Origin: a virus
Lineage: Duplodnaviria > Heunggongvirae > Uroviricota > Caudoviricetes
IMG/VR virus record: IMGVR_UViG_2563366840_000010
Location: 1-45,700 of that record
Strand: one strand, 5' to 3'
Length of the DNA stretch: 45,700 nucleotides
In this document: piece after piece, positions 2,835 to 26,692 of the stretch
Layout of the letters: each line of letters begins with the position of its first letter
Position numbering within the stretch: the stretch's first letter is position 1
Position numbers and translations under genes: made by a program
The notes under the pieces: generated by a model
Databases searched by the model: none
What the model was told of the DNA's origin: nothing
Seen by the model: only the letters and a program-made list of their open reading frames with translations

Positions 2835-5800
2835 TTATGCCTGAGTACGCAGCGCTTCAAGGCGGCGCAGGTCGAAGTCGTTCAGTTCGTCGGTGTAGTC
2901 AGCAGTGATTGGCGCTGGCCATTCACCTGTGTCGAATCCGGTTGCGATATTGCGCATCGCTTTGCGGTACTCGAGCATACCCAGCTCCAGTAGTTCAGCG
3001 GATGCCTCGATGATGGCGATCCAGTGGTAGTTCTCGTCTTTGTTGACGAAAATCCAGAAGAACTGATCCAGCGCTGCGGTTTCGCAGTACATAGCCGCGC
3101 TCAGGTGATAATCACGTTCAATAATTTCCCGGTGTAGCCTGGCGCGCAGGCTTTCCTGCTTAACATTCCACATGCTGATGGTTTTCAGGTCTGCACCTAT
3201 ACGCACGCCATCCAGGTCGATCTCAAGGTCAGGGCGCACACGAACTTCCAAGCCCGTCTCCTCGTCAAAACCAAAGTAGCTCACCTCAACGGCTCGGCTA
3301 GGGTGGGTCAGCAGCATGCCGGCGGTCGGGTGTGCCAGAAGCGCTTTTTGAATATTCAGCGCGGTGCTCAGCTGCTGGCGGGTGACCAGCACTTTTCCTT
3401 CCGGGTTATCGCGCCAGGCATCCAGCAGTTCGTCGGCAAATACGGCATCTGGTTTGACTGCCTTCACGGCCTGGATCATGTCTGCTTTGGTACCGGACAC
3501 TTTCAGTGGTGCCGGTTTCTGTGCTTCCTGAGCCACAAGGTCAGGGTTGATGATTGCCAACTGCTCCAGTAGCGCGTCACGGCTGCCGCTGGTTTTAACC
3601 GGCGGCGGCAGGGTGGCGTTGTACTCTTTAATGCATGCCTTCATTGCCGTCGCCGTCTGCTTCTGGTCACCATCAATACGCTGGAAGTCAGCTGGCAGCG
3701 CCATATAGTTCTGTGCCGTTTCTTCCAGGTTAGCGCCAAGCGGAACCTGCGGCGGCAGGGTGGCGTTGTACTCTTCCAGTAACACCTTGATGTCGTCGGC
3801 AGACAGCAGCGCCGGCAGGCTGGCATTGTGCTCATCGATAAAGGCGCGCAGGGTCGCGGCCGTTGTGAATGCGCCTTCAGGGATCACCGGTTCAACGCTG
3901 AATTCTGCGTCCAGTAGTTCAGGCTGCAACGCCAGCGCATGCACCAAGTTGCCCATGTCCAGCACCGCTGAGCGCTCTTTGACGATGGTTTTCTCTACGT
4001 GGCGCGCATTGAAGTACATCAGCGAAACGCGCGCATCTTTCACCTGGGTTGAGCTGATGCCGTTGGCGGCGTGGTAAACCTCGTTTGGCAGCCCTTCATA
4101 GCGGCCTGGCTCGAAATAAGCGGGATAAACAACAGCTGGTTCGTCAGATTGCGCTTCTGGCTCGGTTTGTGCTGCAACTGGTTCGGTTTGGCTTACAGAA
4201 TCGCTATTTTTGGCGACAGAATCCGTATTCTGGTTTACATCGTCCTTCTGGCTGGTATCTGACTCTTCACCAGACTCCAGACTGCTTTCGCCTGGCTGTA
4301 CTTCATCACCAGCTTGTTTTTCATCACTGACAGTTTCTTGAACCTGCACATTGCTGGTGGTCTCCGAAGCCTTTTTCGTGCCATGAGTTGCTGAGTTCTG
4401 CAGCAAAGCCGTAACGTCGAATATTCCGTTGCCGACATTTTTAACCAGTTCTTGTTCGACTTTCTGCGGTTGTGCTGCCGCTTCCTCTGCGCGGCGGCGT
4501 GCTCCTTCTTCACGCACGCGTTGCAGGTTCTCTTCGTGAGTGCAGAAGGATTTGCGCGGAGACTCCTTACCTTCAGGTTGGGGAATTTCCTGTGCTGCGG
4601 GTTCAGCCTCATGCAACGGCAATAACTCGACCGCGGAATTGAACGCGGCTGTCATGGTCTGGTTAACAAATTCCAGGTGAGCGACAGGAGTTAAATGAAT
4701 ATTTTCCGGTGCGATACGTACCAGGTTAAAAATAGCCGTGCGGTTAACACCCAGAACGCCTGGCTGATTGCGCAGGATGTTGCTCCATGATTTCCATGGT
4801 TCTTCTTTTTTGGTCACGATTTCTTTAGCGCGACGAAGAATGCTGCCCGGGATCTCGAAGTGGTTGAAGTCCATAGGCAGAAGGGCACACGCAATCTCTA
4901 AATCGAGAGTGTCCAGTGTGTGGTGTGCGTCAGGTCCACGGTCAGTGACGTAACCGCCGTCGGCATTAGTGCCGGAATCAGTACGCTGCACACTACTGAT
5001 GCGATTACCGGCGGCCCATTCGCGAACGAGGATACCGCGGTCGATGTGAACTGTAGCGAACCACAATTTCAAAAACTGGATTAAGGTTGCGAGTTCAGGG
5101 ATTTTTCCATCGACAGGGAAGACTTTCTTAACGGCATTCACGACTTTATGAATATCGTGCTCAATGGCTTTTTTGAATGCTTCCACATTCTCAGCTGCCA
5201 GCAGCAGGTTCTGGACGTACGCGTCATCGGTGTCCATCTCAAGGCGGACAATCTCATTTTTCTGCCCTGCGTCGATGTGATAGAGATATTCACCATCACC
5301 GATGAACTGAGCCAGTACGCGCTGGCGGAATGGCAGGGTGGCAACAACGATCAGGTTCGGTTGCTGTGTCTGCTGGGATTGCTCTTCGGTATCGACTTCA
5401 CCATCAACGACGCCACCTTCTGCCCGGCCGTTCTCGTCGGTCTGGATACCGTCCTCAACAGTGAGATCTTGACCCGTTGTAACGTCAGCAGCGTTGCTGG
5501 TTTCAGTTTTGAGCAACTGCAACTTACCACTGCGCCAGTCTTCTACCAGTTGATTGCGGTCACCGGCATCGGTGTTCACCCAGTCAGACATGAATGCAGC
5601 GATCAATCTTGGTTCGTGCTCTTCGTCTGGTGTGAAAATGTCCTTAACCGCCCGAATCATTTTCCACTCAGCATTCAGGCTGAGTTTGGCGGTCGCGGGC
5701 ACATCGTTCCTTGCCACAAGCAGGCTATGGAGATATGTATTGCCTTCATCCAGTGACATTTCGCTGGCAGCCAACTGCTGCTCTTTAGTGACGTGGGTTT

Positions 5801-7832: not shown

Positions 7833-9236
7833 TTATTGACGATTAAAGTAGTTAGAGTTTAGCTCTTTAGGGAAGTAGTGTTTACGATTTACCCAAACAA
7901 ATCCATCAACTTTTGATATCACAGCGACATCAACAGGCCCACCGACAGTTTCATAATCATGTGATACTTTTCTTTTGAATGCAGTGATGTTCACTAATGA
8001 TTCGGCCATATACGCAAGATCTGCCTTCCCAAGTGATTGCAACATCGATATCATTTTATTTGTATGGTTATTAACAATATAGCTTTCAAGTTTAGTATCG
8101 TGATCTTGTAAAAGTACGTTTTTGAGTTCCTCAATTTCACTGGAGAAGTGATTGGCTAGTACTCCATTGTTCATTGCAGGGAAAATATTGCTAGAAACAT
8201 AATGATTAAGCCGATCAAAAACTTCCTCTGTAAGAGTTCTGTTAAAATTAATGATGTTAGGGTTGCACCCATCAATGAAAGTTACTACTTCATCTTCTTG
8301 AGCAAATGGTATAACAAACCCCATATTGGTTACCTCATTATGGGATTTATCATCAATATTATGGATCATCAATTTGTTTTTAAAAATGCCGTAGATATGA
8401 AGAGTGCAAATGGAAGGGTAATATTCTTCCTCTCCATAACCTGTTATAACAATCCCTGAATATGTACGACTAGCATGGACTTTGAAAATTAAACAAGTGG
8501 AATATAATATGACTTTTTCCATAAGCTCTTGCTGTATATTTTCACAGTTATCAAGAACAATAATTGATGAAATGTATGGCGATATTAAATCTTGTATATA
8601 TGCTAAAGCATCATTAAACTCTTCTGTATCAAACCCTTCGAAAAAGAGATTATTCCTTAAGATTCCTATCTCTAAATCAAAGGCTTGCTTAACTATGTTT
8701 TGAAAAATAACATTGTCGAGTTCAACGGCGGGGTTCATTGTTAAATAGTTTACTACATTATTATCATTAATGTATCTCATCAAACCTTTGAGGTTATCAA
8801 CAACAAGGTTTATAACGCAAGCCTCTCTCATTTCATTTGTTATAAGGTCTGAGTTACCATTGATGAATTTTACAAAGTCATTAACATATTCTTTAATGGT
8901 AGGGAAACTAGTTTTCCCCAATTGTTTTCTATAGGATTTAATTATAAGTTCCCACGGTGCGCCACCCAGTGTCGCATTATTATAAATCATGATCCCCACG
9001 GGATGGTGTTTAGATAGTTCGAATAGTTTTTCCGCACTATTATTTATTTTTACTAATCTATTATGCTCTGTGGTGACTGCAGAGTCAGCAGCAAGGGCGA
9101 TTCCAGTATTATTTATTACAACAATCTCAGCTGTCATTGCAAAACATCCCGTGTAGTAGTGATAAATATTAATTAAATTGATAGTTTTTTTCAATCTAAC
9201 ATAAATGGCGGAATCACCCCCCAGTAAAGACATCAT
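7833..9236 (-). CDS. AT-rich accessory (moron) protein with proteasome-beta/HslV-like motifs; likely true start at 9137 (434 aa)
   Basis: Long ORF co-oriented with and 43 bp downstream of the repressor gene; visibly AT-rich; internal start gives MTAEIVVINNTGIALAADSAVTT; C-terminal VGGPVDVAVISKVDGFVWV. Confidence 0.7.
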   Translation of the reverse strand: MMSLLGGDSAIYVRLKKTINLINIYHYYTGCFAMTAEIVVINNTGIALAADSAVTTEHNRLVKINNSAEKLFELSKHHPVGIMIYNNATLGGAPWELIIKSYRKQLGKTSFPTIKEYVNDFVKFINGNSDLITNEMREACVINLVVDNLKGLMRYINDNNVVNYLTMNPAVELDNVIFQNIVKQAFDLEIGILRNNLFFEGFDTEEFNDALAYIQDLISPYISSIIVLDNCENIQQELMEKVILYSTCLIFKVHASRTYSGIVITGYGEEEYYPSICTLHIYGIFKNKLMIHNIDDKSHNEVTNMGFVIPFAQEDEVVTFIDGCNPNIINFNRTLTEEVFDRLNHYVSSNIFPAMNNGVLANHFSSEIEELKNVLLQDHDTKLESYIVNNHTNKMISMLQSLGKADLAYMAESLVNITAFKRKVSHDYETVGGPVDVAVISKVDGFVWVNRKHYFPKELNSNYFNRQ

Positions 9237-9278: not shown

Positions 9279-9662
9279 TCAGTCCCCCTGCGAGCGAATC
9301 CGCCCCTTCATGTACTTCTCGTACAGCTCATCTAACTCTTTCAGGCGAAGCGCAAAAATGCGGAGCATGTTCTGCTGCTCTTCTTCCGGTAACTGGCGGT
9401 AGAGCTCGAGCAAACGCTGTTCGTCCGGTTTGAGACCGTCTTTCTCTCCAACGTCTTCACCGAGTAGCCAGGCGACAGAAATACCAACAGCGTCGGCTAT
9501 GGCCAGTGCCGATTTCTTACTAATCACGCCTTTTTTGAACCAGCCGTTTACGGCCTGAGGGGTGACTCCAGCTATTCTTGCCATGTCTGCTTTGGTAACG
9601 CCGCGATCAGTGATCTCAGTAAGGCGCTCCACCAGAACGAGGTTGGGTTCTTCTTTTCTCAT
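9279..9662 (-). CDS. CI-like prophage repressor, HTH-XRE type, no peptidase domain (127 aa)
   Basis: HTH segment KADMARIAGVTPQAVNGWFKKG; divergent from cro-like gene; the listed 217-aa ORF is an upstream extension without RBS. Confidence 0.8.
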   Translation of the reverse strand: MRKEEPNLVLVERLTEITDRGVTKADMARIAGVTPQAVNGWFKKGVISKKSALAIADAVGISVAWLLGEDVGEKDGLKPDEQRLLELYRQLPEEEQQNMLRIFALRLKELDELYEKYMKGRIRSQGD

Positions 9663-9670
9663 ATGGTCAT

Positions 9671-9736
9671 TGTAAATATTTGGTTTATGCACGCAATAAA
9701 TCCAAAGTTTGCATGAAGTATAAATCTGTGGTTTAC
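9671..9736. promoter_or_regulatory. oR-like operator region: TGTAAATatttgGTTTATG (9671..9689) and TATAAATctgtgGTTTAC (9719..9736) plus divergent promoters
   Basis: Repeated sites matching the oL copies; candidate pR TTGCAT-17-TTTACT upstream of cro. Confidence 0.5.
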
Positions 9737-9764
9737 TTCTGCTATCAATAAGCAGGAGAAGCAC

Positions 9765-9983
9765 ATGTCCGCACTCGATAAAGCAATTAAAGCCGCTGGC
9801 TCTGCCAGAAAGCTCAGCATCGCGCTTGGTGTGACGAGTATGTCTGTAAGTCATTGGAAGAATCGTGACCAAGGGATCGTCCCGCCAAGCTATATCTTCC
9901 CGATTTTCAAAATGACAGGCGTAACCCCCCACGAGCTGCGCCCTGATCTCTATCCAAATCCCACTGACGGATTACCAAAGTAG
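9765..9983 (+). CDS. Cro-like / YdaS-family HTH regulator (72 aa)
   Basis: AGGAGAAG RBS; small HTH protein divergent from the repressor. Confidence 0.8.
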   Translation: MSALDKAIKAAGSARKLSIALGVTSMSVSHWKNRDQGIVPPSYIFPIFKMTGVTPHELRPDLYPNPTDGLPK

Positions 9984-16554: not shown

Positions 16555-16980
16555 ATGCCGAGCAAAGATTACTATCTTAATCGAAGGGCTAGGCTTGCTA
16601 AGGCCGTGGAAAAGTTGGGTGGTCGTTGCGCGAGTTGCGGATCCGAATATTCGCTTCAGTTTGACCACATAGACCCTTCCACCAAATCAGCAAATGTAAG
16701 CGAGATGCACTATCACTCAGATTCGGTGTTTTATGCTGAGGTTGAAAAGTGCCAACTACTATGTTCTGCATGCCACATTCAGAAAACCAAATTTGACCTT
16801 AGCTACTTAGTAGCTGGTGAGCTGAATGGTATGAGCAAGCTAACAATGGACAGCGTCCAGTTCATCAGAGAAAACTACATTCCACGACATAAGGTTTATG
16901 GAGCCAGAGGGCTAGGGAGAATGTTTGGTGTAACACATCAAACAGTGCTTTCAGCCTTAAATGGCGAAACCTGGAAATAA
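16555..16980 (+). CDS. HNH endonuclease (141 aa)
   Basis: CASCGS...DHIDP...CQLLCSACH HNH motif. Confidence 0.8.
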   Translation: MPSKDYYLNRRARLAKAVEKLGGRCASCGSEYSLQFDHIDPSTKSANVSEMHYHSDSVFYAEVEKCQLLCSACHIQKTKFDLSYLVAGELNGMSKLTMDSVQFIRENYIPRHKVYGARGLGRMFGVTHQTVLSALNGETWK

Positions 16981-17397
16981 GCTGCGCGTCAGAGGTTCGA
17001 TTCCTTTGCCCGCTCCAGTAAAAGCTTTCCAGTCTGCGATGATGGGTTCCCCGGAGTGACTGGAAAGCGACCTGGTTTTGAATGGGCGCTGCTTTTTGCA
17101 AAATTGCTGTGTGAAAATACTGACCTTTGGGTTCAGCGCTCATCCAAAAGCATCACGTGAATTCACCAACGCTCATGTACTCTCCAGGAAACAATAAGTG
17201 ATTCTGAAAAGTTCCGGTTAGATATTGCCCCGGTCACCGGATGATTTTATCTTTTGGTTCGTGGTGAATCCCCCTATGCGGCGGGGCGTCCAGTCAAACT
17301 TTTTTGTCCAGGTTTGTTTGCGCGGAACTAGTCGGCTGGGGCTGTTCCACCGGGAGGCACCCGGCGCCACCTCCTTGACGGTATTGTTATTTTTCAT

Positions 17398-17424
17398 GCC
17401 TGTTCGTCCGAGCAGGCTTTTTTT
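17398..17424 (+). terminator. intrinsic terminator (GCCTG-ttcgtccgag-CAGGC + T7)
   Basis: Seen directly; no convincing plus-strand CDS upstream. Confidence 0.6.
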
Positions 17425-17455
17425 GCCCGCATTATCTTCATTGAAAACTGGCAAC

Positions 17456-17626
17456 TCAGAGAATCATCCAAATTAAAAAAGCAGCAACGAGAGCGATTAC
17501 TAATACATTCTTCGCTTTTTCTCTTCTGCTGGCCTTCACAAAAGGATTCACTATCCGGCAGTGGCTACACACAAGTGATTCTGGGTTAATTAACTTTCCG
17601 CAGTAGGGGCAGGGCTTGATAATCAT
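17456..17626 (-). CDS. possible small zinc-ribbon membrane protein (56 aa)
   Basis: Unlisted ORF MIIKPCPYCGKLINPESLVCSHCRIV... with hydrophobic C-terminus; no clear RBS. Confidence 0.25.
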   Translation of the reverse strand: MIIKPCPYCGKLINPESLVCSHCRIVNPFVKASRREKAKNVLVIALVAAFLIWMIL

Positions 17627-17833
17627 TGGTACTAATTAAGTTGTGAGAACGTAGTCTCATTTAACCACATTTATCGAGTTGTTTTACTAATGGTCTAGTT
17701 ATTTCAGACATATTCATCAATTTCAGGCTCACGGGAATCATCCGCTACGTGCTTTGTTGATAAATCCAGCCCGTGAAGCCTGACCCTTTTCAAACACACA
17801 CACAGCGCCATCCGAAAAATCGGAGGTGAGGCT

Positions 17834-18112
17834 ATGACCAGAATGAGCACCATTTACAGCAGACTTTCATATGGAACAGGAACCACGCTGACCGGCTGCG
17901 GTGTATCAGCGAAGGCATATGCCGAAACAGCTAAAACAGCAAAAGAGGTGTCCTGGATGTTGGCCGACAGAATTGCAGGGTTAAGCCTGAGCGACTGGGC
18001 AATTATTGTCGGTATCGCATGCACTGTTATTACCTGTGCAGTGAACTGGTATTTCCGCTGGAAAGAACGGGAGGATCGGCGCAATGGCTATGCCACCAAA
18101 GCTGAAGAATAG
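17834..18112 (+). CDS. pinholin, phage-21 S21-like (92 aa)
   Basis: GGAGGTGA RBS; two TMDs; C-terminus [11 protein letters not shown] parallels S21 YFKIREDRRK. Confidence 0.8.
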
Positions 18113-18656
18113 CGTTATTGCAGCGATACCCGCTGGCGCTATTGCTATCGCTGCGGCGTTGATTACTGGCCCAACGGGTAATGATGGCCTTGAAGGTGTA
18201 CGCTATCAGCCTTATCGGGATGTTGTTGGAGTGTGGACTGTATGCTGGGGCCATACTGGTAAAGATATTATCCTCGGCAAGACCTACACCAAAGCAGAGT
18301 GCCAGGCGCTGCTGGATAAAGACCTGAATATTGTCGCCCGACAGATTAACCCATATATCAATGCTCCGATCCCCGAAACGATGAGAGGGGCGCTGTACTC
18401 ATTTGCGTATAACGTAGGCGCGGGAAACTTCAAAACCTCCACACTGTTACGAAAAATCAACCAGGGTGATTCGAAAGGCGCATGCGAACAACTGCGGCGC
18501 TGGATCTATGCTGGTGACAAACAGTGGAAGGGTTTAATCACGAGGCGTGAGATTGAGCGTGAAGTTTGCCTGTGGGCAGAGAAACCTCAGGTTCTGGGGG
18601 ATGGACTCGGGCCGCTTAACCCTGGCATTCCGGTATCAGTTCCGGGGGTATTCTGA
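18084..18656 (+). CDS. SAR endolysin, GH24 lysozyme, R21-like (190 aa)
   Basis: N-terminal signal-anchor [27 protein letters not shown] and lysozyme core close to phage 21 R as recalled. Confidence 0.85.
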
Positions 18657-19192
18657 TGAAACCCAGAAAAATTACGATTGTTGCGGTTCTGCTGGTGGCT
18701 GTCGTAATCATTATTGCAGTGCTTAGCGTATTACTGGTTCGTAGCCGCTCAGCTCTTGAAACAGAACAGAGTGAGAATCGGGTATTACGTAATGATAACG
18801 CGCTGCAGGCGACGGTGATAACTACACAGGCTTTCAACTTCAATCGGTTTAACCAGATAGCAGAGAACGCCAACCGCCTTAACTCGCTGATCGATGCCGG
18901 TACTGAGAAAACTGTCATCGAATACCGGGAGATTCTCCGACGTGAAAAGACCTGTGATCTGCCTGTTCCTGCTGATGTCGCTGGTGGGCTGCTCAAATAC
19001 GCGTACCGTTTACGTGCCAGCGCAATGCACCCCGATACCGGGAACACTAACGCAACCGATGATAGTACCGCTGCCGCCAGCTCAATGACGTATTGCCAGG
19101 CCGTCCTCTGGATTGAACCTTTGCTGGCTGTTATTGAGAAGGGCAACAATAACCTGGCGGGTATACGAGAGATTGAGAAGTTACGAAAATGA
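18656..19192 (+). CDS. i-spanin (Rz-like), N-terminal TMD (178 aa)
   Basis: ATG overlaps the endolysin stop; embedded lipoprotein ORF in +1 frame. Confidence 0.6.
   Translation: MKPRKITIVAVLLVAVVIIIAVLSVLLVRSRSALETEQSENRVLRNDNALQATVITTQAFNFNRFNQIAENANRLNSLIDAGTEKTVIEYREILRREKTCDLPVPADVAGGLLKYAYRLRASAMHPDTGNTNATDDSTAAASSMTYCQAVLWIEPLLAVIEKGNNNLAGIREIEKLRK
18894..19088 (+). CDS. o-spanin (Rz1-like) lipoprotein embedded in Rz; start possibly GTG at 18942
   Basis: Lipobox LVGC, Pro-rich C-terminus. Confidence 0.55.
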   Translation: MPVLRKLSSNTGRFSDVKRPVICLFLLMSLVGCSNTRTVYVPAQCTPIPGTLTQPMIVPLPPAQ

Positions 19193-19454
19193 ATAATGTC
19201 CGTTGACATTGTTAGGGTGATTCTCATTTAACAACCTCAACTGCTACATTACAGTGCTTCATCATGCAATTAGCTTTTTCACCAATGGCTTAGATCCAGT
19301 GAAAGTTACTGACGTTATCTAATGACAAGATGAACGTAGCTTTTGTGTAGTTTTTCAGCGAATAGGATTATCTGAATTTAGCATTTTTGGCTTGTATAAA
19401 CTGTGGGTAAGTAGCTATAGTCACGTCATAGATAGTATTTTTGCATCTTTTTCA

Positions 19455-19480
19455 AGCCTCTTTTGAGGCTTTTTGCACAT
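19455..19480 (+). terminator. hairpin AAGCCTC-tttt-GAGGCTT + TTTTG
   Basis: Seen directly, ~260 bp after Rz. Confidence 0.4.
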
Positions 19481-19562
19481 TTAAATATGACAACAATGGC
19501 ACATATAGTATGTCCCCCTTGGCACAGGCACTATATGTAGCGCTATAAAAGGAGCTATCATT

Positions 19563-19763
19563 ATGACCCCAGCTGAGTTCTACGATGTTTACAATATCAA
19601 ACCGGCAGAAATGTTGACTGGTGAAACTGTTAACAACTTCGCTTCTCGTGTAATGGCACAGCAAACTAGTACGAGTGGAAACACAGGTGTTTGGTACTCA
19701 CAAGGTACCGCTACACAATCGAAGCAAAACCAAACTACAAGTCATCAACTTTACACGTACTGA
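19563..19763 (+). CDS. hypothetical small protein (66 aa), first gene of an AT-rich two-gene cassette
   Basis: AAAGGAG RBS; Q/T/S-rich C-terminus. Confidence 0.6.
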   Translation: MTPAEFYDVYNIKPAEMLTGETVNNFASRVMAQQTSTSGNTGVWYSQGTATQSKQNQTTSHQLYTY

Positions 19764-19766
19764 TTT

Positions 19767-20669
19767 ATGCCTAATTGGAGCGACGTACTGGGCGAGATAA
19801 CGGCTCTCGCCCATAAAAGTCCTATGGATGAGGTTCGCCGTAAATACTTATCTCAACTTTCGAATCATACTGGAAGAAATGTAATCACATATTACTCAGG
19901 GTGGTTACAGCATGGTGGTGCAGAAGTACGCCATCTTACTCAGATGACTGATGATGATAAGAACGGGTTGATGACAGCCATCAATGGTTTAGATGTATCA
20001 AAAGGGTTGGATTTGATACTTCATACTCCAGGTGGTGATATTGCCGCTTTGGAATCAATCGGGCATTACTTAAGGTCGAAGTTTGGAACTAACATCAGAG
20101 CAATTGTTCCTATGATTTCAATGTCCTGCGGAACTATGCTTGCATGTTGTGCCAATGAAATCATCATGGGTAAACAGTCCAACATTGGCCCAATTGATCC
20201 TCAGTTCAACGGTTTCTCCACCCATGCCATCATTGAAGAATGGAATCGTGCGCAGACGGAAATTTTTCAAAATCCCGCAGCTGTTCAGATGTGGCAGTTC
20301 ATTCTTCAAAAGCTAAACCCGACGATCATCGGCGAGTGTGAGAAAGCAATCAAATGGGCAAATGAGATTGTTAAGCATTGGCTTATGACAGGCATGTTTG
20401 ATAATGATCCTGAGGCAGAATCAAAAGCAACACATGTTTGTTCAGAGTTAAACAACCATCACACAACCTATACCCACTCGCGTCATATTCATTTTGATAA
20501 GGCGCAGAAAATTGGGTTGAATGTTACCGAACTTGAAAGTGATCAAGTACTTCAAGATTTGGTTTTGACTATACATCACAGCTACATGCATTCTTTTGGT
20601 GGAGCACCACTGGCAAAAATCATTGAAAATCATAACGGTAACGCAATGATTTGGAATATCCAGTCTTAA
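19767..20669 (+). CDS. ClpP/S49-fold (SDH-type) serine peptidase-like protein (300 aa)
   Basis: LHTPGGDIAALESIGHYL and SMSCGTMLACCANEI segments resemble ClpP/SppA-fold peptidases; start 3 nt after the upstream stop. Confidence 0.65.
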   Translation: MPNWSDVLGEITALAHKSPMDEVRRKYLSQLSNHTGRNVITYYSGWLQHGGAEVRHLTQMTDDDKNGLMTAINGLDVSKGLDLILHTPGGDIAALESIGHYLRSKFGTNIRAIVPMISMSCGTMLACCANEIIMGKQSNIGPIDPQFNGFSTHAIIEEWNRAQTEIFQNPAAVQMWQFILQKLNPTIIGECEKAIKWANEIVKHWLMTGMFDNDPEAESKATHVCSELNNHHTTYTHSRHIHFDKAQKIGLNVTELESDQVLQDLVLTIHHSYMHSFGGAPLAKIIENHNGNAMIWNIQS

Positions 20670-20687
20670 TCCCCCCTGTCTGATTCC

Positions 20688-20716
20688 AGCCTCGCCTATG
20701 CGGGGCTTTTTTATTT
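20688..20716 (+). terminator. intrinsic terminator (AGCCTCGC-ctat-GCGGGGCT + TTTTTTATTT)
   Basis: Seen directly after the cassette. Confidence 0.7.
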
Positions 20717-20790
20717 GCGGTACGCAGCACACAGAACCCACTACCTGGGACCCTTCGGCCAGAGAGCCGACATTGCCTTACCCTCACATT

Positions 20791-20816
20791 GCCAGCCTGT
20801 CGCTGGCTTTTTTATT
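20791..20816 (+). terminator. second intrinsic terminator (GCCAGC-ctgtc-GCTGGC + TTTTTTATTT)
   Basis: Seen directly. Confidence 0.7.
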
Positions 20817-20889
20817 TGCGATGTCCGGTCGTTGTTTCCTGGCATCCTTCCACTCTACACAAACAGCACCCCGTTCCTTCGGAGGTGAT

Positions 20890-21207
20890 ATGGCAAAGCG
20901 TATGAATGACGACCACAAAATTGTAGGCCTGTCCTGGTTAGTCCTGCTCGGCATTGCATGCTGGGGCGGTTTAGTTCGCTACCTGATCGACGTAAAGCAG
21001 AATAAAGCGACATGGAGCTGGATAAACGCGCTGGCACAGATCGCTGTCTCCGGCTTTACCGGTTTGATTGGCGGGTTGATAAGCGTGGAGAGTGGGTTGA
21101 GTTTTCACATGATCCTTGTCACGTCCGGCATTAGCGGGGCGATGGGTTCAGTGGCTCTGACCTATTTCTGGGAACGCTTGACGGGGATGAAGAATGCAAA
21201 CCAGTGA
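20890..21207 (+). CDS. holin, class I, 3 TMD (105 aa), second lysis cassette
   Basis: GGAGGTGA RBS; three hydrophobic segments, charged C-terminus. Confidence 0.7.
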   Translation: MAKRMNDDHKIVGLSWLVLLGIACWGGLVRYLIDVKQNKATWSWINALAQIAVSGFTGLIGGLISVESGLSFHMILVTSGISGAMGSVALTYFWERLTGMKNANQ

Positions 21208-21634
21208 TAAAGGCATTGCCCTGATCAAAGAGTTCGAAGGTTGCAAGCTCACTGCCTATCAGGACAGCGTCGGCGTTTGGACGATCGGTTATGGCTGGAC
21301 TCAGCCCGTCGACGGGAAACCAATCCGTGCCGGGATGACAATTAAGCAGGAAACGGCAGAACGCCTGCTGAAGACAGGAATGGTCAGTTACGAAAGTGAC
21401 GTGTCACGACTGGTTAAAGTTGGCCTGACTCAGGGGCAATTCGATGCCCTGGTGTCGTTCACGTATAACCTCGGTGCGCGGTCATTGTCGACATCGACTC
21501 TCCTGCGAAAACTCAACGCCGGAGATTACGCTGGTGCAGCCGATGAGTTCCTGCGCTGGAATAAAGCTGGTGGGAAGGTGCTGAATGGGCTGACACGTCG
21601 GCGGGAGGCAGAGCGGGCTCTGTTCCTGTCATGA
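21194..21634 (+). CDS. soluble endolysin, GH24 lysozyme (146 aa)
   Basis: EFEGCKLTAYQDSVGVWTIGYG catalytic region typical of T4/P22-type lysozymes. Confidence 0.85.
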   Translation: MQTSDKGIALIKEFEGCKLTAYQDSVGVWTIGYGWTQPVDGKPIRAGMTIKQETAERLLKTGMVSYESDVSRLVKVGLTQGQFDALVSFTYNLGARSLSTSTLLRKLNAGDYAGAADEFLRWNKAGGKVLNGLTRRREAERALFLS

Positions 21635-22101
21635 TTGGCGCGCTGGTTAAGCGTTACTGGCTGCAACTGATTGTGGTGTCGGTAATCGGCGTGCTGGCGT
21701 TCTTCGTTAACCACTACCGCGACAACGCCATCACCTACAAAGACCAGCGCGACAAGGCAATTGAGAATCTCAGCCTTGCGAAAAATACCATCGATGACAT
21801 GAAGGTGCGCCAGCGTGATGTCGCTGCACTGGATGCCAAATACACCGGAGAACTGGCTGATGCGAAAGAAACCATTGAGCGTCTGCATAGCGATGTCATT
21901 GCTGGCCGTAAGCGGCTGCAGCTCAACGCAAACTGTCCCGCGAACGGAACGACCAGCACCGGCGGCCTGGGCGATGTTACCGGCCCCCGACTTACTGACT
22001 CCGCTGAACGGGATTATTTCACCCTCAGAGAGCGAATCGTCACAGTGACGAAACAGGTTGGATATTTGCAGGAATACATCAAAGAGCAGTGCTTAAATTG
22101 A
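21631..22101 (+). CDS. i-spanin Rz (156 aa)
   Basis: N-terminal TMD, coiled-coil-like body, embedded Rz1. Confidence 0.7.
   Translation: MIGALVKRYWLQLIVVSVIGVLAFFVNHYRDNAITYKDQRDKAIENLSLAKNTIDDMKVRQRDVAALDAKYTGELADAKETIERLHSDVIAGRKRLQLNANCPANGTTSTGGLGDVTGPRLTDSAERDYFTLRERIVTVTKQVGYLQEYIKEQCLN
21860..22048 (+). CDS. o-spanin Rz1 lipoprotein (62 aa)
   Basis: Lipobox LLAVSGC; C-terminal TPLNGIISPSE matches lambda Rz1. Confidence 0.7.
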   Translation: MRKKPLSVCIAMSLLAVSGCSSTQTVPRTERPAPAAWAMLPAPDLLTPLNGIISPSESESSQ

Positions 22102-22133
22102 TGTTAAATTAACCTTTTACATACGGAGGGGTT

Positions 22134-22538
22134 ATGCAAATAGATCAAGAATACCTTAAAGGTTTGCTCGAGGCTTTCGAGGCATCGGATTCACCTGATA
22201 CCGATATTATTCGATTAAATGATTTAGGGTTCAATTGTGAAACTGACACATTTGTGTTTCATATGCGTTTGCTTGAGGATAGAGGGCTGATTATCAGGAG
22301 TGATGGAGAGCCCGGCTTTGGTGCTATTCAGTCTTTAGACGGAATGACTCACTGGGCTGTAATGCCCTTGCGATTGACCGCGATGGGGCATGACTTCTTG
22401 GATGCTCTCCGTAACAAAGAGGTTTGGGCAACATTAAAAACCGGATTCAAAGATGCCAGTATGGGCACGCTGATGACAGTTTCGAAGGAGCTGTTTAACC
22501 GAGCTCTAGCTAAGCAACTTGATAAAATGTTCGACTAA
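22134..22538 (+). CDS. hypothetical protein (134 aa), moron-like
   Basis: Lower-GC ORF followed immediately by a terminator. Confidence 0.6.
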   Translation: MQIDQEYLKGLLEAFEASDSPDTDIIRLNDLGFNCETDTFVFHMRLLEDRGLIIRSDGEPGFGAIQSLDGMTHWAVMPLRLTAMGHDFLDALRNKEVWATLKTGFKDASMGTLMTVSKELFNRALAKQLDKMFD

Positions 22539-22560
22539 CCGCCTACGGGCGGTTTTTTAT
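22539..22560 (+). terminator. intrinsic terminator (CCGCC-tacg-GGCGG + T6)
   Basis: Seen directly. Confidence 0.75.
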
Positions 22561-22614
22561 TGTCAACTTTATGAGCAAACTGATCTTAATTACTGTAACT
22601 AGGTGGTCAATGAT

Positions 22615-23253
22615 ATGGCAACGCTTAAGGACCTTTCCAGTCAGTTAAGACAGCTGCAGAAGCAAATACCGTTTGCGACTGCCCAGGCTATGACTAAAGT
22701 GGTTCGCCAGATAGAAGCGGCCCAAAAAACAGCATTTGAGCGGAATCTGGATAATCCAACACCTTTTACAGTTAAATCGGTTGGGTCAGTTGGTGCCAGG
22801 AAAAACAGCCTTCGTGCGAAGGTGTTTGTTCGTGATACTGCTGCTGGTTACCTTGAACCCTTCGAGTTCGGCGGAGAGCACAAGCTTAATGGAAGTGCTT
22901 TGCTTAACCCGAAAGACATAAAGCTTAATAAATACGGCAACCTGCCGCGTAATAAGCTCTCACAGCTTAAAGCAAAGGAAAATGTATTCGTAGGTGAGGT
23001 TGATGGCGTTAACGCTGTCTGGCAGCGTAAGAAGCCGATGAAAGCTAAGAAGCGACGGGCCAAACGTTCCGCTAACGGGACGCGAAGACCGAAACGCAAA
23101 CAGCGTTCTCCAAAGCTTTTGATCCGGTTTGGTGATGCGCTACCTGTGACTCCAGTGCTGGGGTATATGGATAGGGCCCGTACCATGGCGAACGCACTGC
23201 TACCGTCTGCTTTAAATCAGGCGATAGCAGAAGCCATCAGGACGGCAAAATAA
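22615..23253 (+). CDS. hypothetical phage protein, basic C-terminal region (212 aa from ATG; ORF opens at 22603)
   Basis: AGGTGG RBS before ATG 22615. Confidence 0.5.
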   Translation: MATLKDLSSQLRQLQKQIPFATAQAMTKVVRQIEAAQKTAFERNLDNPTPFTVKSVGSVGARKNSLRAKVFVRDTAAGYLEPFEFGGEHKLNGSALLNPKDIKLNKYGNLPRNKLSQLKAKENVFVGEVDGVNAVWQRKKPMKAKKRRAKRSANGTRRPKRKQRSPKLLIRFGDALPVTPVLGYMDRARTMANALLPSALNQAIAEAIRTAK

Positions 23254-23263
23254 AAGCAGTAAC

Positions 23264-23767
23264 TTATAAGTTAATTTCGCAAGCTTTTATGAAGCTGTTT
23301 ACTGCAGTTGTCGATCCAGAAACATTGGCTGACATGGAATGCTGGTTTCCGCCATCCTTTGTTTGCACACCAACTAACACTTTGGATTTCGCCCCCTGAA
23401 GCTGCTTAAGCACTGTTTTTAGTTGGTCCGCGTCATCCGATTGAATCTGGAGGCTCTGAACATTACGTCTTGAAAGGGTAGCATCGAGCTTCACTGCGGT
23501 ATTCCCGTCGACCTTCATTATCAGGTCCATTGGTACCTCTGATAGTGATTCGGTGCTTTTATCCATTTCAACGTATGCCGCCGATAGCTTTTCTTTAGTG
23601 CAGTCAAACACAATGGCGCCATTGTCGGATGAAACCTCGCCAAGCATCATTGCTTTCTTACCACCAGAGAAAAGGTCATCTTCAGTATTAGTTACCCACT
23701 GGGCATGAGCAATTGGTGATGCCAGCACTGCGGCTACGAAAGTTATTTTGATTATATTGTTACCCAT
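23264..23767 (-). CDS. secreted hypothetical protein with signal peptide (167 aa)
   Basis: MGNNIIKITFVAAVLASPIAHA-QW signal peptide; AGGAGA RBS; opposite strand to the late operon. Confidence 0.6.
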   Translation of the reverse strand: MGNNIIKITFVAAVLASPIAHAQWVTNTEDDLFSGGKKAMMLGEVSSDNGAIVFDCTKEKLSAAYVEMDKSTESLSEVPMDLIMKVDGNTAVKLDATLSRRNVQSLQIQSDDADQLKTVLKQLQGAKSKVLVGVQTKDGGNQHSMSANVSGSTTAVNSFIKACEINL

Positions 23768-23910
23768 TACATTCTCCTTGTATTGAATAGGAATAATCAT
23801 AGTCGGAGCGAATGGTCGAAGCCATTAAAAAAATGGGTCCTTCCTGAGACTTTTGTAAGGTACGGGCATTGCGCGCCGCGGTGTTTTCCTAGCTACAACT
23901 TTCAGATTTG

Positions 23911-24058
23911 TGTCCCATGTCCCACCTCTGGCGATCATTACGGACACCTCGCCAGCTCTGGCTATTCCAGTTTATTCCAGTGGGACATTCTGGTGGGACA
24001 TGGCAAAAATGTCCCAGGCGAATGTCCCACCCCAGAAAATGTCCCAGGTGATGTCCCA
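23911..24058. repeat. array of eight ATGTCCCA-type heptamer repeats (six direct, two inverted) upstream of the small terminase gene; candidate cosB-like sites
   Basis: TGTCCCA at 23911, 23919, 24010, 24023, 24039, 24052; TGGGACA at 23981, 23994. Confidence 0.5.
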
Positions 24059-24627
24059 TGACCACGATGAACCAGAGTCAGTACGCACAACATTCAGGTG
24101 TGGATCGCAAAACAATTGGCCGGTGGATTAAAGCCGGGCGCTTCATTGTGATGGACGGAGACCTGATTGACGTAGAGGCCAGCGATGCGGCATTGAAGAA
24201 AAACCGCGATGGCAAAGACCCGCGCGCCTCGAACGCGAAGAAAAAGAAAACTCCCGTCGTTAGCGATAACGATGATGACGGTGATGAAATCAATAAAACT
24301 GTCCGCCAGATAATGCTCACTGAAGGGGCAGATCTTTCGAGAGAGGAAGCGGGACGTATCCGCGAGAATTACATGGCCCTGCAGGCAAAGCTGCAGTATG
24401 AAAAAGACAGCGGCCAGCTTATTGAGCTGACAGCAGCCGAGGAGGTTTTATTCAACGCCTTTCGCCAACAGCGTGATGCCTGGCTTAACTGGCCGTCCAG
24501 GGTGGCGCCGCTAATGGCTGCTGATCTGGATGTACCGGCGGACAGGATGACAGAGGTGCTGATTGAACATGTCCACAAACACATCTCAGTCCTCGGAGAG
24601 CCAGAGTTTAACCCGGCAGAAGATTGA
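24058..24627 (+). CDS. terminase small subunit, Nu1-like (189 aa)
   Basis: N-terminal HTH (RKTIGRWIKAG) and position before the gpA-like large subunit. Confidence 0.7.
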   Translation: MTTMNQSQYAQHSGVDRKTIGRWIKAGRFIVMDGDLIDVEASDAALKKNRDGKDPRASNAKKKKTPVVSDNDDDGDEINKTVRQIMLTEGADLSREEAGRIRENYMALQAKLQYEKDSGQLIELTAAEEVLFNAFRQQRDAWLNWPSRVAPLMAADLDVPADRMTEVLIEHVHKHISVLGEPEFNPAED

Positions 24628-26692
24628 GCGTCTTGAATTAAGCGTCCGCAAAGGCTGGACACCCCCGCCGCGTATCAGTGTGCCGCAGTGGGCAGATGAC
24701 TATCGTAAGCTGGCAAAAGAGGCTGGGAGCACTTCGGGAAACTGGGAAACATCGACGGTAGAAATTGCCCGCGGACCGATGCTTGCCGCGACGGAGTCCG
24801 GGGTTCATATCATCACTGTAATGTGCTGTACCCAGTTGATGAAGACAGCACTGCTGGAAAACCTTTTTGGCTATTTTGCCCACCTCGATCCTTGTCCGAT
24901 ACTGCTGCTGCAGCCGAAAGAAGAAGCCGCTGAACAGTTTTCGAAAGAGCGTATTAGCCCGCTGGTAAGGGTGACGCCGGTACTGCGTAAAATCATCGGT
25001 GATTCGAAACAGAAAAGCTCGAAAGAAACCATTCTTTACAAGGCATTCACTGGCGGATTTCTGGCGCTGGCGGGTGCTGGTAGCCCTGATAACCTTGCGC
25101 GTCGTCCGATTCGTGTCCTGCTGGCGGATGAAGTGGACAAGTACCCGATAACCCGCGAAGGCGATCCAATTGCGCTGGCCGAAGAGCGTACAGCGACATT
25201 TGGCCTGACCTGGCTGTCTGTACGCGCCTGTTCGCCGACGGTGGAGGATGAGAGCCGCATTGCTGACAGCTACGCCGACTCCGATCAGCGCCGGGCATCT
25301 GTGGTTTGCCCGCACTGTGGCCACCGCCAGTTCCCCGACTTTTTCAAACACGTTCAGTGGCCGAAAGAGGGAGATAAACACCTGACTAAATCGGCGATGC
25401 TCTATTGCGAATGCTGTGGTAGTGGCTGGTCCGAAGGACAGCGCCTCAGAGCTCTGCACACTATTCGATGGCATCAGACGCGCCCATTTGAGTGCTGCGG
25501 GGAGCGGCACTCACCGCTGATGGATTATGACCTTGCCTGGCGGGCGGCAGACGAGGGCAGCGTTGAAAAGGTCTGGCAATGGTCAGAGTCGGAACGGCAT
25601 GCGGTCTATCGCGCAATCTGCCCCTCCTGTGGAAAGGAGGCAGTCGATAACCACCACGCGGGGTACCAGGCATCCAAGCTTTTCAGCCCCTGGCAAAAAG
25701 ATAAGCCGTCGGATATTGCGAAAAAATATATCGATGCGAAGGGCGATCCGGATAAGGAACAGGCGTGGTGGAATACCCAGATGGGGCTTCCGCACCGACC
25801 TAATCATGGGAAACAGCTCCCTGTTGATGTTCTGCTGGCGCGCCGGGAAATATTTCCGGCCGTCGTTCCGGACGGGGTGGCATTGTTAACAGCTGGAGTT
25901 GATACCCAGGACGATCGCTTCGAAATTACGATCACCGGCTGGGGGAGAGATGAAGAATCGTGGTCGGTCGCGCATGACGTTATTTATGGTGACCTTGAGA
26001 CGGAAGAACCCTGGAAGCGACTGGATGCATACCTGAAACAGATCTGGCGACGTGGTGACGGGCGCGGCCTGAATATCATGGCAACGTGCATGGACTCCGG
26101 CGGCCACCATACGCAGAAGGTATACGAATTCGCCAAAGAGCGTCTTGGCCGTCGTGTCTGGGCAATTAAGGGGGAGTCTGCACAGGGAGGCAAACGCAAT
26201 CCTGTCTGGCCGACCAAACGACCATCATCGAAAAGCAAAGCCAGTTTCCGCCCTGTCATTCTGGGGGTTAACTCAGCGAAAGACGTGATACGCGGTCGCC
26301 TGCATCTTGAGCCACCCAAACCTGGCGCCGCCGCTGCGGGTTATATGCATTTTCCTGACGATCGCGATCTCGGGTACTTCAATCAGCTGCTGGCGGAGCG
26401 ACTGGTTTACAAAGTCATTTCCGGGCAGCGGTACAGTATCTGGGAAGCAATACCAGGACGAGCTAACGAAGCGCTTGACTGCCTCGTTTACAGCTATGCC
26501 GCGCTGTGCGGTCTCAAACATATGGGGTTAAAACTCAACGTCCGGGCCGCCAACCTCGAAGCCGATCCGGATAAGTTCCTGCCAGCGCCAGTTGGACAGG
26601 AAGAAAAAATCAATTACGAGCTGCCGGGTGCGGTTATTGAAGAACCAGCGCCGGTCAAACGTAAGCGAATATCGCAACTCCTGCCGAAATAA
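24563..26692 (+). CDS. terminase large subunit, lambda gpA family (709 aa)
   Basis: N-terminus MNMSTNT..VPQWADDYRKL parallels lambda A; CPHCGHRQF zinc-finger region. Confidence 0.9.
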   Translation: MNMSTNTSQSSESQSLTRQKIERLELSVRKGWTPPPRISVPQWADDYRKLAKEAGSTSGNWETSTVEIARGPMLAATESGVHIITVMCCTQLMKTALLENLFGYFAHLDPCPILLLQPKEEAAEQFSKERISPLVRVTPVLRKIIGDSKQKSSKETILYKAFTGGFLALAGAGSPDNLARRPIRVLLADEVDKYPITREGDPIALAEERTATFGLTWLSVRACSPTVEDESRIADSYADSDQRRASVVCPHCGHRQFPDFFKHVQWPKEGDKHLTKSAMLYCECCGSGWSEGQRLRALHTIRWHQTRPFECCGERHSPLMDYDLAWRAADEGSVEKVWQWSESERHAVYRAICPSCGKEAVDNHHAGYQASKLFSPWQKDKPSDIAKKYIDAKGDPDKEQAWWNTQMGLPHRPNHGKQLPVDVLLARREIFPAVVPDGVALLTAGVDTQDDRFEITITGWGRDEESWSVAHDVIYGDLETEEPWKRLDAYLKQIWRRGDGRGLNIMATCMDSGGHHTQKVYEFAKERLGRRVWAIKGESAQGGKRNPVWPTKRPSSKSKASFRPVILGVNSAKDVIRGRLHLEPPKPGAAAAGYMHFPDDRDLGYFNQLLAERLVYKVISGQRYSIWEAIPGRANEALDCLVYSYAALCGLKHMGLKLNVRAANLEADPDKFLPAPVGQEEKINYELPGAVIEEPAPVKRKRISQLLPK

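Follow-up and report, generated by a model that had tools for sequence, protein, structure and literature searches.

A protease gene and a small partner gene form a mobile cassette in the late region of a lambdoid prophage

We analysed a pair of adjacent genes, encoding a protein of 66 amino acids and an SDH-type ClpP-fold serine protease of 300 amino acids, that lies in a window of 45,700 nucleotides (nt), the window being the whole stretch of DNA under study (IMG/VR virus record IMGVR_UViG_2563366840_000010, positions 1 to 45,700). The window is a lambdoid (lambda-like) prophage whose genes run in the order integrase, RecT/RecE, cI-like repressor, O, NinG, Q, lysis cassette 1, the gene pair, lysis cassette 2, DUF2513, terminase, portal, S49 protease and capsid genes. 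A first-pass annotation, made from the sequence alone, had described the span from 19563 to 20669 as an AT-rich two-gene unit set into the late operon. The list of open reading frames (ORFs) places both genes there, 3 nt apart, but the functional unit is larger and extends from about 19343 to 20731. Its features are listed below.

About 19343 to 20731, + strand: whole mobile unit (moron) of about 1.4 kb, with promoter, leader, two genes and terminator; the block common to diverged copies.
19392 to 19421, + strand: P1, promoter-like site TTGTAT-18 nt-TATAGT, kept in 8 diverged enteric copies.
19454 to 19474, + strand: leader hairpin 1, AAGCCTC-TTTT-GAGGCTT and then a T-run, terminator- or attenuator-like, from the RNAalifold consensus.
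19501 to 19538, + strand: leader hairpin 2 or palindrome, ACATATAGT, 20 nt, ACTATATGT, ending just upstream of the ribosome-binding site.
19550 to 19554, + strand: Shine-Dalgarno sequence AGGAG of the small gene, 8 nt ahead of the ATG at 19563.
19563 to 19763, + strand: small partner gene, 66 amino acids (ORF list), with a Q/T/S-rich tail ending in QLYTY.
19767 to 20669, + strand: gene of the SDH-type ClpP-fold serine protease, 300 amino acids (ORF list and PF01972).
20124 to 20126, + strand: codon of Ser120, which with Asp144 and one of His237, His240 and His271 makes up the candidate catalytic residues.
20688 to 20715, + strand: the cassette's own intrinsic terminator, an 8-bp GC-rich stem (hairpin 20688 to 20707) and T6, from the terminator scan.
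20791 to 20815, + strand: second terminator (hairpin 20791 to 20807), from the terminator scan; part of the resident Q-to-holin leader.

The cassette and its boundaries

Diverged copies of the pair in other prophages (70-83% DNA identity) have only about 19343-20731 in common with the window, and over this block the copies in the backbones of L015, L016 and L018 are 80-83% identical to it. The AT-richness ascribed to the pair was borne out, with a guanine-plus-cytosine (GC) content of 0.42 over 19001-20500 and of 0.50-0.57 in the flanks, and the strong ribosome-binding site ascribed to the small gene is the AGGAG listed above.

P1 is kept whether a spanin gene or a Q gene of either of two unrelated families (PF06323 and PF03589) lies upstream. 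Its independence of the upstream Q family and of the slot indicates that P1 is part of the cassette, and an identity as the Q-dependent late promoter pR' of the phage was therefore ruled out. In the copy carried by prophage 3 of E. coli Nissle 1917, where the equivalent site reads TTGTCA-18-TATAGT (promoter scan score 10/12), a separate strong terminator lies between Q and P1, which also speaks against pR'. A second candidate promoter, TTTAAA-18-TATAGT at 19480-19509, was discarded because it is not kept as a promoter in the diverged copies.

The promoter-like and inverted-repeat sequence noticed earlier upstream of the pair is retained in diverged copies, with compensatory changes in the stems. 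Leader hairpin 1 has 7 bp, with compensatory changes in three of the seven pairs. Leader hairpin 2 is a perfect 9-nt inverted repeat (19501-19509 and 19530-19538) in which two of nine pairs are changed on both sides in other copies, while three one-sided changes yield G-U pairs; over both hairpins this amounts to five pairs with compensatory changes and one-sided changes that are mostly G-U. The second hairpin may act as an RNA stem or as a DNA operator. The folding energy of the leader is unremarkable (z -1.4), and a search of Rfam with the leader and the 3' region returned only sub-threshold chance matches.

Two tandem terminators had been proposed downstream of the pair. Both hairpins are present, but only the first, at 20688, belongs to the cassette: a hairpin and T-run follow the protease stop by 20-30 nt in every diverged copy, again with compensatory changes in the stem. 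The second is found in L004, a relative without the cassette, and is missing from the other contexts of the cassette, and it is therefore not the cassette's own; the sequence past 20714 is likewise resident Q-to-holin leader. The stretch 20727-20817, including the second terminator, is 98% identical to the Enterobacter phages ENT1 and BHUENT3/6 and 89% identical to CobraSix, and the rest of the 19200-20900 query had no match in any sequenced phage.

Copies of the cassette occur in about 85 of 5,426 complete E. coli genomes (1.6%), always in the chromosome and with a median of one per genome. Other E. coli prophages match the window at 98% identity from 18793, a position inside the upstream spanin gene, to 20714, and 19200-20714 is 100% identical in at least 42 complete E. 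coli genomes. The insertion site varies. In the prophages L001 and L002 the block lies between spanin and KilA-N or terminase genes; the copies in L003, L019, L020, L021 and Nissle 1917 prophage 3 come directly after Q and before the holins; the L015 copy follows a CHAP endolysin gene and DUF2514 and precedes Nu1. L004 is 98% identical to the window from 20688 onward and lacks the whole cassette. Read from these arrangements, the cassette hops between a Q-to-holin slot and a spanin-to-terminase slot. Taken together, a promoter-like site (as predicted) and a terminator that travel with the genes, a deviant GC content, and presence or absence among relatives mark the cassette, on sequence comparison, as an autonomous moron in the lambdoid late region. 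This agrees with the earlier description of an autonomous unit in the late operon, since it has its own promoter-like site, leader and terminator and moves among late-region slots.

By comparison of the window with L004 and L001, an L004-like phage has had only its Q region exchanged, for a segment of another lambdoid phage that comprises Q, lysis cassette 1 and the moron. On the right, the recombination joint (20688-20714) lies inside terminator sequence common to both parents, and the first terminator of the cassette coincides with this joint to the L004-type backbone. The same arrangement is present in IMG/VR contig UViG_2778261573_000004 (L014), which is 99.96% identical over 17261-26666.

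The Nissle 1917 copy (L103, NZ_CP058217.1 2188910-2190028) is 70% identical to that of the window and has the same promoter, hairpins and terminator. It is located between Q and a DNA methyltransferase/holin, and a 68-amino-acid partner is annotated there. The Prokaryotic Genome Annotation Pipeline starts the protease at locus position 6065, 29 nt past the conserved MPNW start (6036). The moron genes go unmentioned in a published transcriptome study of Nissle prophage 3. In RefSeq, the partner gene is unannotated in L001, L002 and L003, the loci inspected, and some E. coli records label the protease 'S49 family peptidase' and shorten its start. In L018 the gene directly upstream of the moron (4676-5068) encodes an Acb2/Tad1-hairpin domain protein (E 4e-18; anti-CBASS/anti-Thoeris sponge family). 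Defence-related and anti-defence cargo therefore use the same slot.

The protease and its partner in bacteria and archaea

A ClpP/S49 fold had been assigned to the larger protein in the first-pass annotation from the motifs HTPGG and SMSCG (HTPGG is indeed found at residues 86-90 and MSCG at residues 119-122), and a hidden Markov model (HMM) search had been suggested as a check. In that search, residues 22-255 matched PF01972 (ClpP-like SDH-type serine proteinase; SDH_protease, formerly DUF114) with 81.2 bits, above the gathering cut-off of 31.3 (E 8e-23). The predicted structure shows a confident ClpP-like fold with an extra C-terminal helical domain of about 130 residues that is rich in invariant His; no solved structure of a relative is detectable by sequence. 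Identical proteins carry the RefSeq name 'SDH family Clp fold serine proteinase', and the protein matches PHROG 11747 (E 2e-138), to which no function is assigned there. The NCBIfam equivalog NF047768 (Clp_like_SDH) gives 95.9 bits, below its cut-off of 250, and the protease is therefore placed in a distinct subfamily of about 300 amino acids. This subfamily comprises 716 representatives at E<=1e-30 (HMMER, 1.84 billion cluster representatives), nearly all of them single-domain proteins of about 300 amino acids.

The possibility that the catalytic residues were absent had been raised as a point that would count against a peptidase. The best profile alignment puts Ser120 at the active-site serine motif of ClpP, and S120, D144, H237, H240 and H271 are invariant among 79 homologues, in the order Ser-Asp-His. 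The ClpP family PF00574 (S14) has no match in the protein, which has no invariant His between Ser120 and Asp144. Among the enteric copies the ratio of nonsynonymous to synonymous substitution rates (dN/dS) is 0.01-0.03. Judged from its sequence, the protease retains its active-site candidates and is probably an active-type enzyme.

The homologues P0065 (named as Dehalobacter, Firmicutes), P0068, P0092, P0096 and P0117 are longer than about 300 amino acids because of 20-45 additional C-terminal residues of Q/P-rich low-complexity sequence, an extension absent from the enteric proteins. In giant viruses (Marseillevirus, Klosneuvirus, Hyperionvirus, Harvfovirus and others) several 'serine dehydrogenase proteinase' homologues have full-length fold similarity to the protease model; the best match of the model in BFVD has an E-value of 2e-10 and a template modelling score of 0.64. 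These fold matches indicate that the SDH family reaches the nucleocytoplasmic large DNA viruses.

The small ORF is a real gene and not a chance one, because its dN/dS is low (0.04-0.14 at dS>0.8 among enteric copies, in which 66-68 codons are kept), because it has a dedicated PHROG (25714, E 4e-44), and because its place beside the protease is conserved. Only the enteric partner type has a PHROG, and neither Pfam nor NCBIfam has a match for the small protein or for any of 79 partners. The protease gene begins 3 nt past the stop of the small gene and in the same frame, and its ATG has no Shine-Dalgarno sequence of its own, suggesting translational coupling. An AlphaFold2 (AF2) model of the small protein has helices at residues 3-9 and 23-36, and residues 38-66 have a predicted local distance difference test score below 50. 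This disordered half holds the conserved segments GVWYSQGTA and QLYTY, which suggests that it may fold on binding; the extreme C-terminus QLY[ST]Y is conserved among the enteric small proteins.

Searches with the small protein by tblastn and by a word index found enteric relatives only; distant partners were located by their position beside the protease, and profiles served to link them afterwards. When one genome per species was scanned, at least 528 protease relatives were obtained. The top 80, which served as the set of diverse loci, represent Methanosarcinales and almost every bacterial phylum, and none has less than 49% identity to the window protease. When the neighbourhoods of these homologues were surveyed, as the first-pass annotation had proposed, an ORF of 50-120 amino acids abutted the protease in 63 of the 64 loci with enough flanking DNA, compared with 84 of 272 (31%) other large ORFs of the same loci, which were used as controls (Fisher p 8e-26). 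The partner is upstream of the protease in 56 of the 63 loci and downstream in only 7, all in Clostridia, in which the order is reversed and the pairing kept. Gaps between the two genes range from -4 to +28 nt, and stop and start often overlap. The frequent small-ORF endings '...AKLE' and '...AKLV' are the alternative frame of the conserved protease N-terminus MPNWNEVL.

Sequence diversity among the partners themselves is extreme, with six types or more. The motif of the largest type is h-F-x2-h-x-I ... Y-x-N-P-x2-F-A-x2-F-x-K-C-[ST]-I ... h-x-Y-S-[ST], and the HMM of this type finds members on which it was not trained, including downstream-encoded ones, and otherwise nothing among 10,272 ORFs; over the same ORFs the partner HMMs in general match only those adjacent to a protease. 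The enteric type and the largest non-enteric type are related in profile-profile comparison (probability 89%, E 2e-6, 49 columns) and in reciprocal HMM searches (E 6e-4 to 1e-2). Relationships among the partner subtypes rest partly on position and not on detectable homology.

The nearest relative of a protease has the same type of partner in 77 of 81 cases, a signal that is partly taxonomic. The protease positions that discriminate between partner types are residues 11-20, 51-60, 231-233, 265-279 and 292-297. In the metagenomic representative P0219 a group-B partner is fused in frame ahead of the protease Met1 as an N-terminal region of about 65 amino acids (HMM E 5e-9). A second metagenomic representative, P0221, looks like another such fusion, which is suggestive by eye only; the other long homologues were rejected as partner fusions, most of them carrying only Q/P-rich C-terminal tails. 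There is a marked evolutionary asymmetry within the pair, the partner being hypervariable and the enzyme at least 49% identical from E. coli to Methanosarcinales. By these sequence comparisons, the small partner is obligate, co-inherited and co-evolving with the protease, and sometimes fused to it.

Possible functions of the pair

We tentatively favour, at somewhat less than an even chance, the interpretation of the pair as a module resembling toxin-antitoxin (TA) or abortive-infection systems, in which the protease is the effector and the small, half-disordered protein its cognate inhibitor or pro-peptide. Binding to the protease would involve the two N-terminal helices of the small protein together with its conserved strand-like segment 'h-x-Y/W-S-[ST]', and while bound the small protein would keep the protease inactive, as a trans-encoded pro-peptide or a type II antitoxin does. 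The disordered tail would make the small protein labile or displaceable. If the partner were lost, titrated or degraded, for example upon infection by another phage or upon loss of the element, the freed protease would cut some highly conserved target of the cell (or of a phage), with arrest of the cell as the result, and the prophage would benefit through abortive infection, exclusion or stabilisation. One reading of the leader is that in lysogens P1 and the leader hairpins may give low expression, and that after induction Q-modified polymerase may read through.

Several lines of evidence are consistent with such an inhibitor. A conserved enzyme with a hypervariable, partly disordered partner that is encoded upstream and coupled to it has the architecture of a protease under a cognate inhibitor. 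That the protease hardly varies between E. coli and archaea suggests a target conserved universally, and a function in conflict, whether abortive infection, exclusion or stabilisation, is suggested by the location in moron slots of prophages and on islands linked to integrases. We counted in favour of the inhibitor the autonomy of the cassette, the low dN/dS, the active-type protease, the obligate pairing, partner specificity, co-evolution and fusion, and likewise the antitoxin-like shape of the partner, the evolutionary asymmetry, the mobile and conflict-related context and the precedent of IetAS, cited in PMC13069673 as a pair active in TA and defence whose toxin is a serine protease.

Of the 114 immediate neighbours in diverse genomes, 8 are integrases, and other neighbours include a few methyltransferases, BrxL, AbiEii-like ATPases and PADLOC candidate (PDC) families; no third conserved gene was found in the diverse loci surveyed. 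The members in sequenced phages occupy accessory slots, and no virulent phage is among the carriers. In a Shewanella Mu-like phage the pair lies between the late regulator C and the lysis genes, and in Porphyromonas phages it lies beside HicAB; in both a small annotated gene precedes the protease. In a Gordonia phage the protease follows the tail genes, and no gene is annotated in the 254-nt gap before it. A survey of Porphyromonas spacers from clustered regularly interspaced short palindromic repeats (PMC5570325) lists several that target a 'protein of unknown function DUF114', DUF114 being the former name of PF01972. This fits a family carried by mobile elements that hosts try to exclude.

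A number of observations weigh against the inhibitor interpretation. Most immediate neighbours in diverse genomes are ordinary genes. The protease family is found in only 7 of 50,697 sequenced phage records and in only 4 of 72,556 plasmid records, unlike classic addiction modules, and neither protein matches any family of PADLOC-DB v2 at E<=1. The homology among several partner subtypes is weak or undetectable, the links of C, D and E to the rest being non-significant. The AF2 model of the small protein has no recognisable DNA-binding fold, and the upstream palindrome is therefore not assignable to it. Finally, the small protein is under purifying, not diversifying, selection among close relatives.

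A more far-reaching version, which we regard as doubtful, is that the pair represents a hitherto unrecognised, pan-prokaryotic two-component system in which an ultra-conserved, self-compartmentalising SDH/ClpP-fold protease would be kept latent by a hypervariable trans-acting 'cap' that doubles as a sensor. It would form a new class of abortive infection carried on prophage morons, and its protease has relatives in giant viruses. The cap would serve, for example, as a bait removed by the proteins or proteases of an invading phage, and activation would lead to cleavage of a target conserved between bacteria and archaea.

The strict, co-evolving pairing would also be expected of an enzyme and its dedicated substrate. 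In that case the N-terminal helices would be the recognised leader of a precursor, and a cut near the conserved Y/W-S-[ST] would free an active product, either a variable Ser/Thr-rich peptide or an N-terminal piece, with signalling, regulatory or toxic activity. In the small protein, as in a peptide precursor, a motif can be recognised at the N-terminus and the C-terminal part that follows is variable, disordered and S/T-rich; the fusions put the partner at the position of a cleavable pro-region, and SppA-type relatives bind and self-process C-terminal peptides, to go by the title of PDB 4kwb. However, no signal peptide, exporter, receptor or modifying enzyme was found near the pair in the loci surveyed, the length of the tail is not kept between subtypes, the conserved enteric C-terminus QLY[ST]Y ill suits a hypervariable 'core', and partners that have diverged to this extreme are not easily squared with a universal peptide function. 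We therefore consider precursor processing unlikely.

The position of the enteric and Mu-like phage units, always in the late transcription unit beside lysis genes, raises the question of whether the pair serves the lytic cycle. The protease would then degrade a factor of the host, for instance a regulator of lysis timing or a protein of defence or stress, as an accessory or counter-defence function, and the small protein would be its adaptor, chaperone or timing brake. The arrangements Q-cassette-holin, spanin-cassette-terminase and late regulator C-cassette-lysis agree with this, as Q-modified polymerase would read through, and so does the copy that adjoins the Acb2/Tad1-like anti-defence gene. 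A lytic role nevertheless seems quite unlikely. Most members in the 80 diverse genomes lie outside recognisable phage late regions, the possession of a promoter and a terminator is typical of morons expressed in lysogens, a protease with an identity of at least 49% across phyla and domains does not sit well with a host-specific target, and the family is very rare in sequenced phages, with no virulent carrier found.

It is very unlikely that the pair is a classical addiction module, which would only stabilise its mobile element by post-segregational killing. The two-gene architecture, the coupling, the labile-looking partner and the association with mobile genetic elements are all of this kind, and IetAS was first described as a plasmid-stabilising protease TA system; but the family is nearly absent from plasmids, is usually present in single copy (median 1 per E. 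coli genome), and sits in prophage moron slots, which usually hold genes for host benefit or exclusion. The remaining possibility of an ordinary structural or maturation (prohead/scaffold) protease, as allowed for in the first-pass annotation, beside a chance small ORF is effectively refuted, because the similarity to head-maturation profiles is weak and far below threshold (NF045542 20.9 bits against a cut-off of 120; phrog_53 E 6e-5) and the prophage has a separate Peptidase_S49 gene (28598-29464, after the portal gene) that fills the prohead protease slot, and the cassette is absent from 98%-identical relatives and widespread outside phages, with a small ORF that is under purifying selection and syntenic across phyla.

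Prophage context, known systems and significance

Two complete lysis cassettes are present in the one prophage, at 17834-19192 and 20890-22101, and consist of the following genes.

Lysis cassette 1: holin, 17834 to 18112; lysozyme, 18084 to 18656; i/o-spanin, 18656 to 19192.
Lysis cassette 2: LydA-type holin, 20890 to 21207; lysozyme, 21194 to 21634; i/o-spanin, 21631 to 22101.

Between Q and the first holin we found an HNH-like ORF of 141 amino acids (16555-16980, + strand) and a DUF2116/zinc-ribbon ORF of 56 amino acids (17456-17626, - strand), the latter followed by a terminator-like hairpin at 17398-17417; the two ORFs are further accessory cargo of the late leader. Elsewhere in the window, an AT-rich ORF of 467 amino acids (7833-9236, - strand; GC 0.32-0.40) has no Pfam or PADLOC match. 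It is co-oriented with, and directly downstream of, the cI-like helix-turn-helix repressor gene (9279-9932), at the slot held by rexAB in lambda, and it is therefore a candidate for an unknown prophage defence or exclusion gene.

The protease is a member of PF01972 and the locus is a moron, and the two-gene module stands outside any named system. That the pairing could not be matched to a named system had already been remarked, and PADLOC, Pfam and NCBIfam (for the small protein) and the literature were all negative. The supplementary tables of DefensePredictor do not mention the pair, and we found no paper on the biology of the SDH protease family or on the pairing. The window protein resembles the NCBI SDH family and PF01972 in its score above the gathering threshold, its ClpP-like core and its conserved Ser-Asp-His order. 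It differs in that the family is named without a described function, in that the window protein falls outside NF047768, and in that no library describes an obligate small partner. Compared with ClpP (S14), SppA and lambda gpC (S49) and NfeD 1510-N, to which it is 10-17% identical, the window protease has the order Ser..Asp..His and not the Ser-His-Asp of ClpP or the Ser-Lys dyad; it comes without an AAA+ partner, membrane anchor or stomatin partner and has the extra C-terminal helical domain.

With type II TA modules and TA-like abortive-infection systems the pair shares an architecture of two co-directional, coupled genes on mobile elements, whose order can flip, and a half-disordered small partner that evolves faster than the enzyme. 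As in such modules the genes form a true pair, with a 3-nt gap here, pairing in 63/64 loci and co-evolution in 77/81 cases. It differs from them in that the partner lacks a DNA-binding fold, that plasmids rarely carry the module and that PADLOC gives no match; toxicity and neutralisation are putative here. The Lit protease of prophage e14 is an instance of a protease as a harmful effector. Lit is a metalloprotease and IetS is subtilisin-like, and the fold of the window protease differs from both.

The lambdoid morons (bor, lom, and stx between Q and S) are likewise AT-rich inserts with their own promoter and terminator, occupy the same Q-to-lysis and lysis-to-terminase slots, and are present or absent among near-identical phages. 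In the present case the cargo is a protease and its partner, not a membrane or virulence protein, and the same pair is found far outside phages. Zymogen pro-peptides, such as those of subtilisin and alpha-lytic protease, which also work in trans, offer a further parallel: the small protein is encoded just before the protease, is sometimes fused to it (P0219), and is partly disordered on its own in the AF2 model. Unlike a pro-peptide, the partner is normally a separate gene, sometimes downstream, and there is no sign of folding assistance or cleavage.

The pairing is thus robust, broad and apparently unreported, and its function is what we infer from the analysis. The partner gene is mostly missed by annotation pipelines. 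If the inhibitor interpretation is true, an uncharacterised protease family, with at least 716 clusters at 50% identity in bacteria and archaea and with relatives in giant viruses, would gain a function and an obligate partner, and a ClpP-fold protease effector would join the short list of protease-based TA and defence systems. E. coli Nissle 1917, with its copy between Q and the lysis genes of prophage 3, is a tractable strain in which to study the pair. Even if the function differs, a universal partner of about 65 amino acids that co-evolves with a near-invariant enzyme would be a clean case for small, fast-evolving protease controllers.

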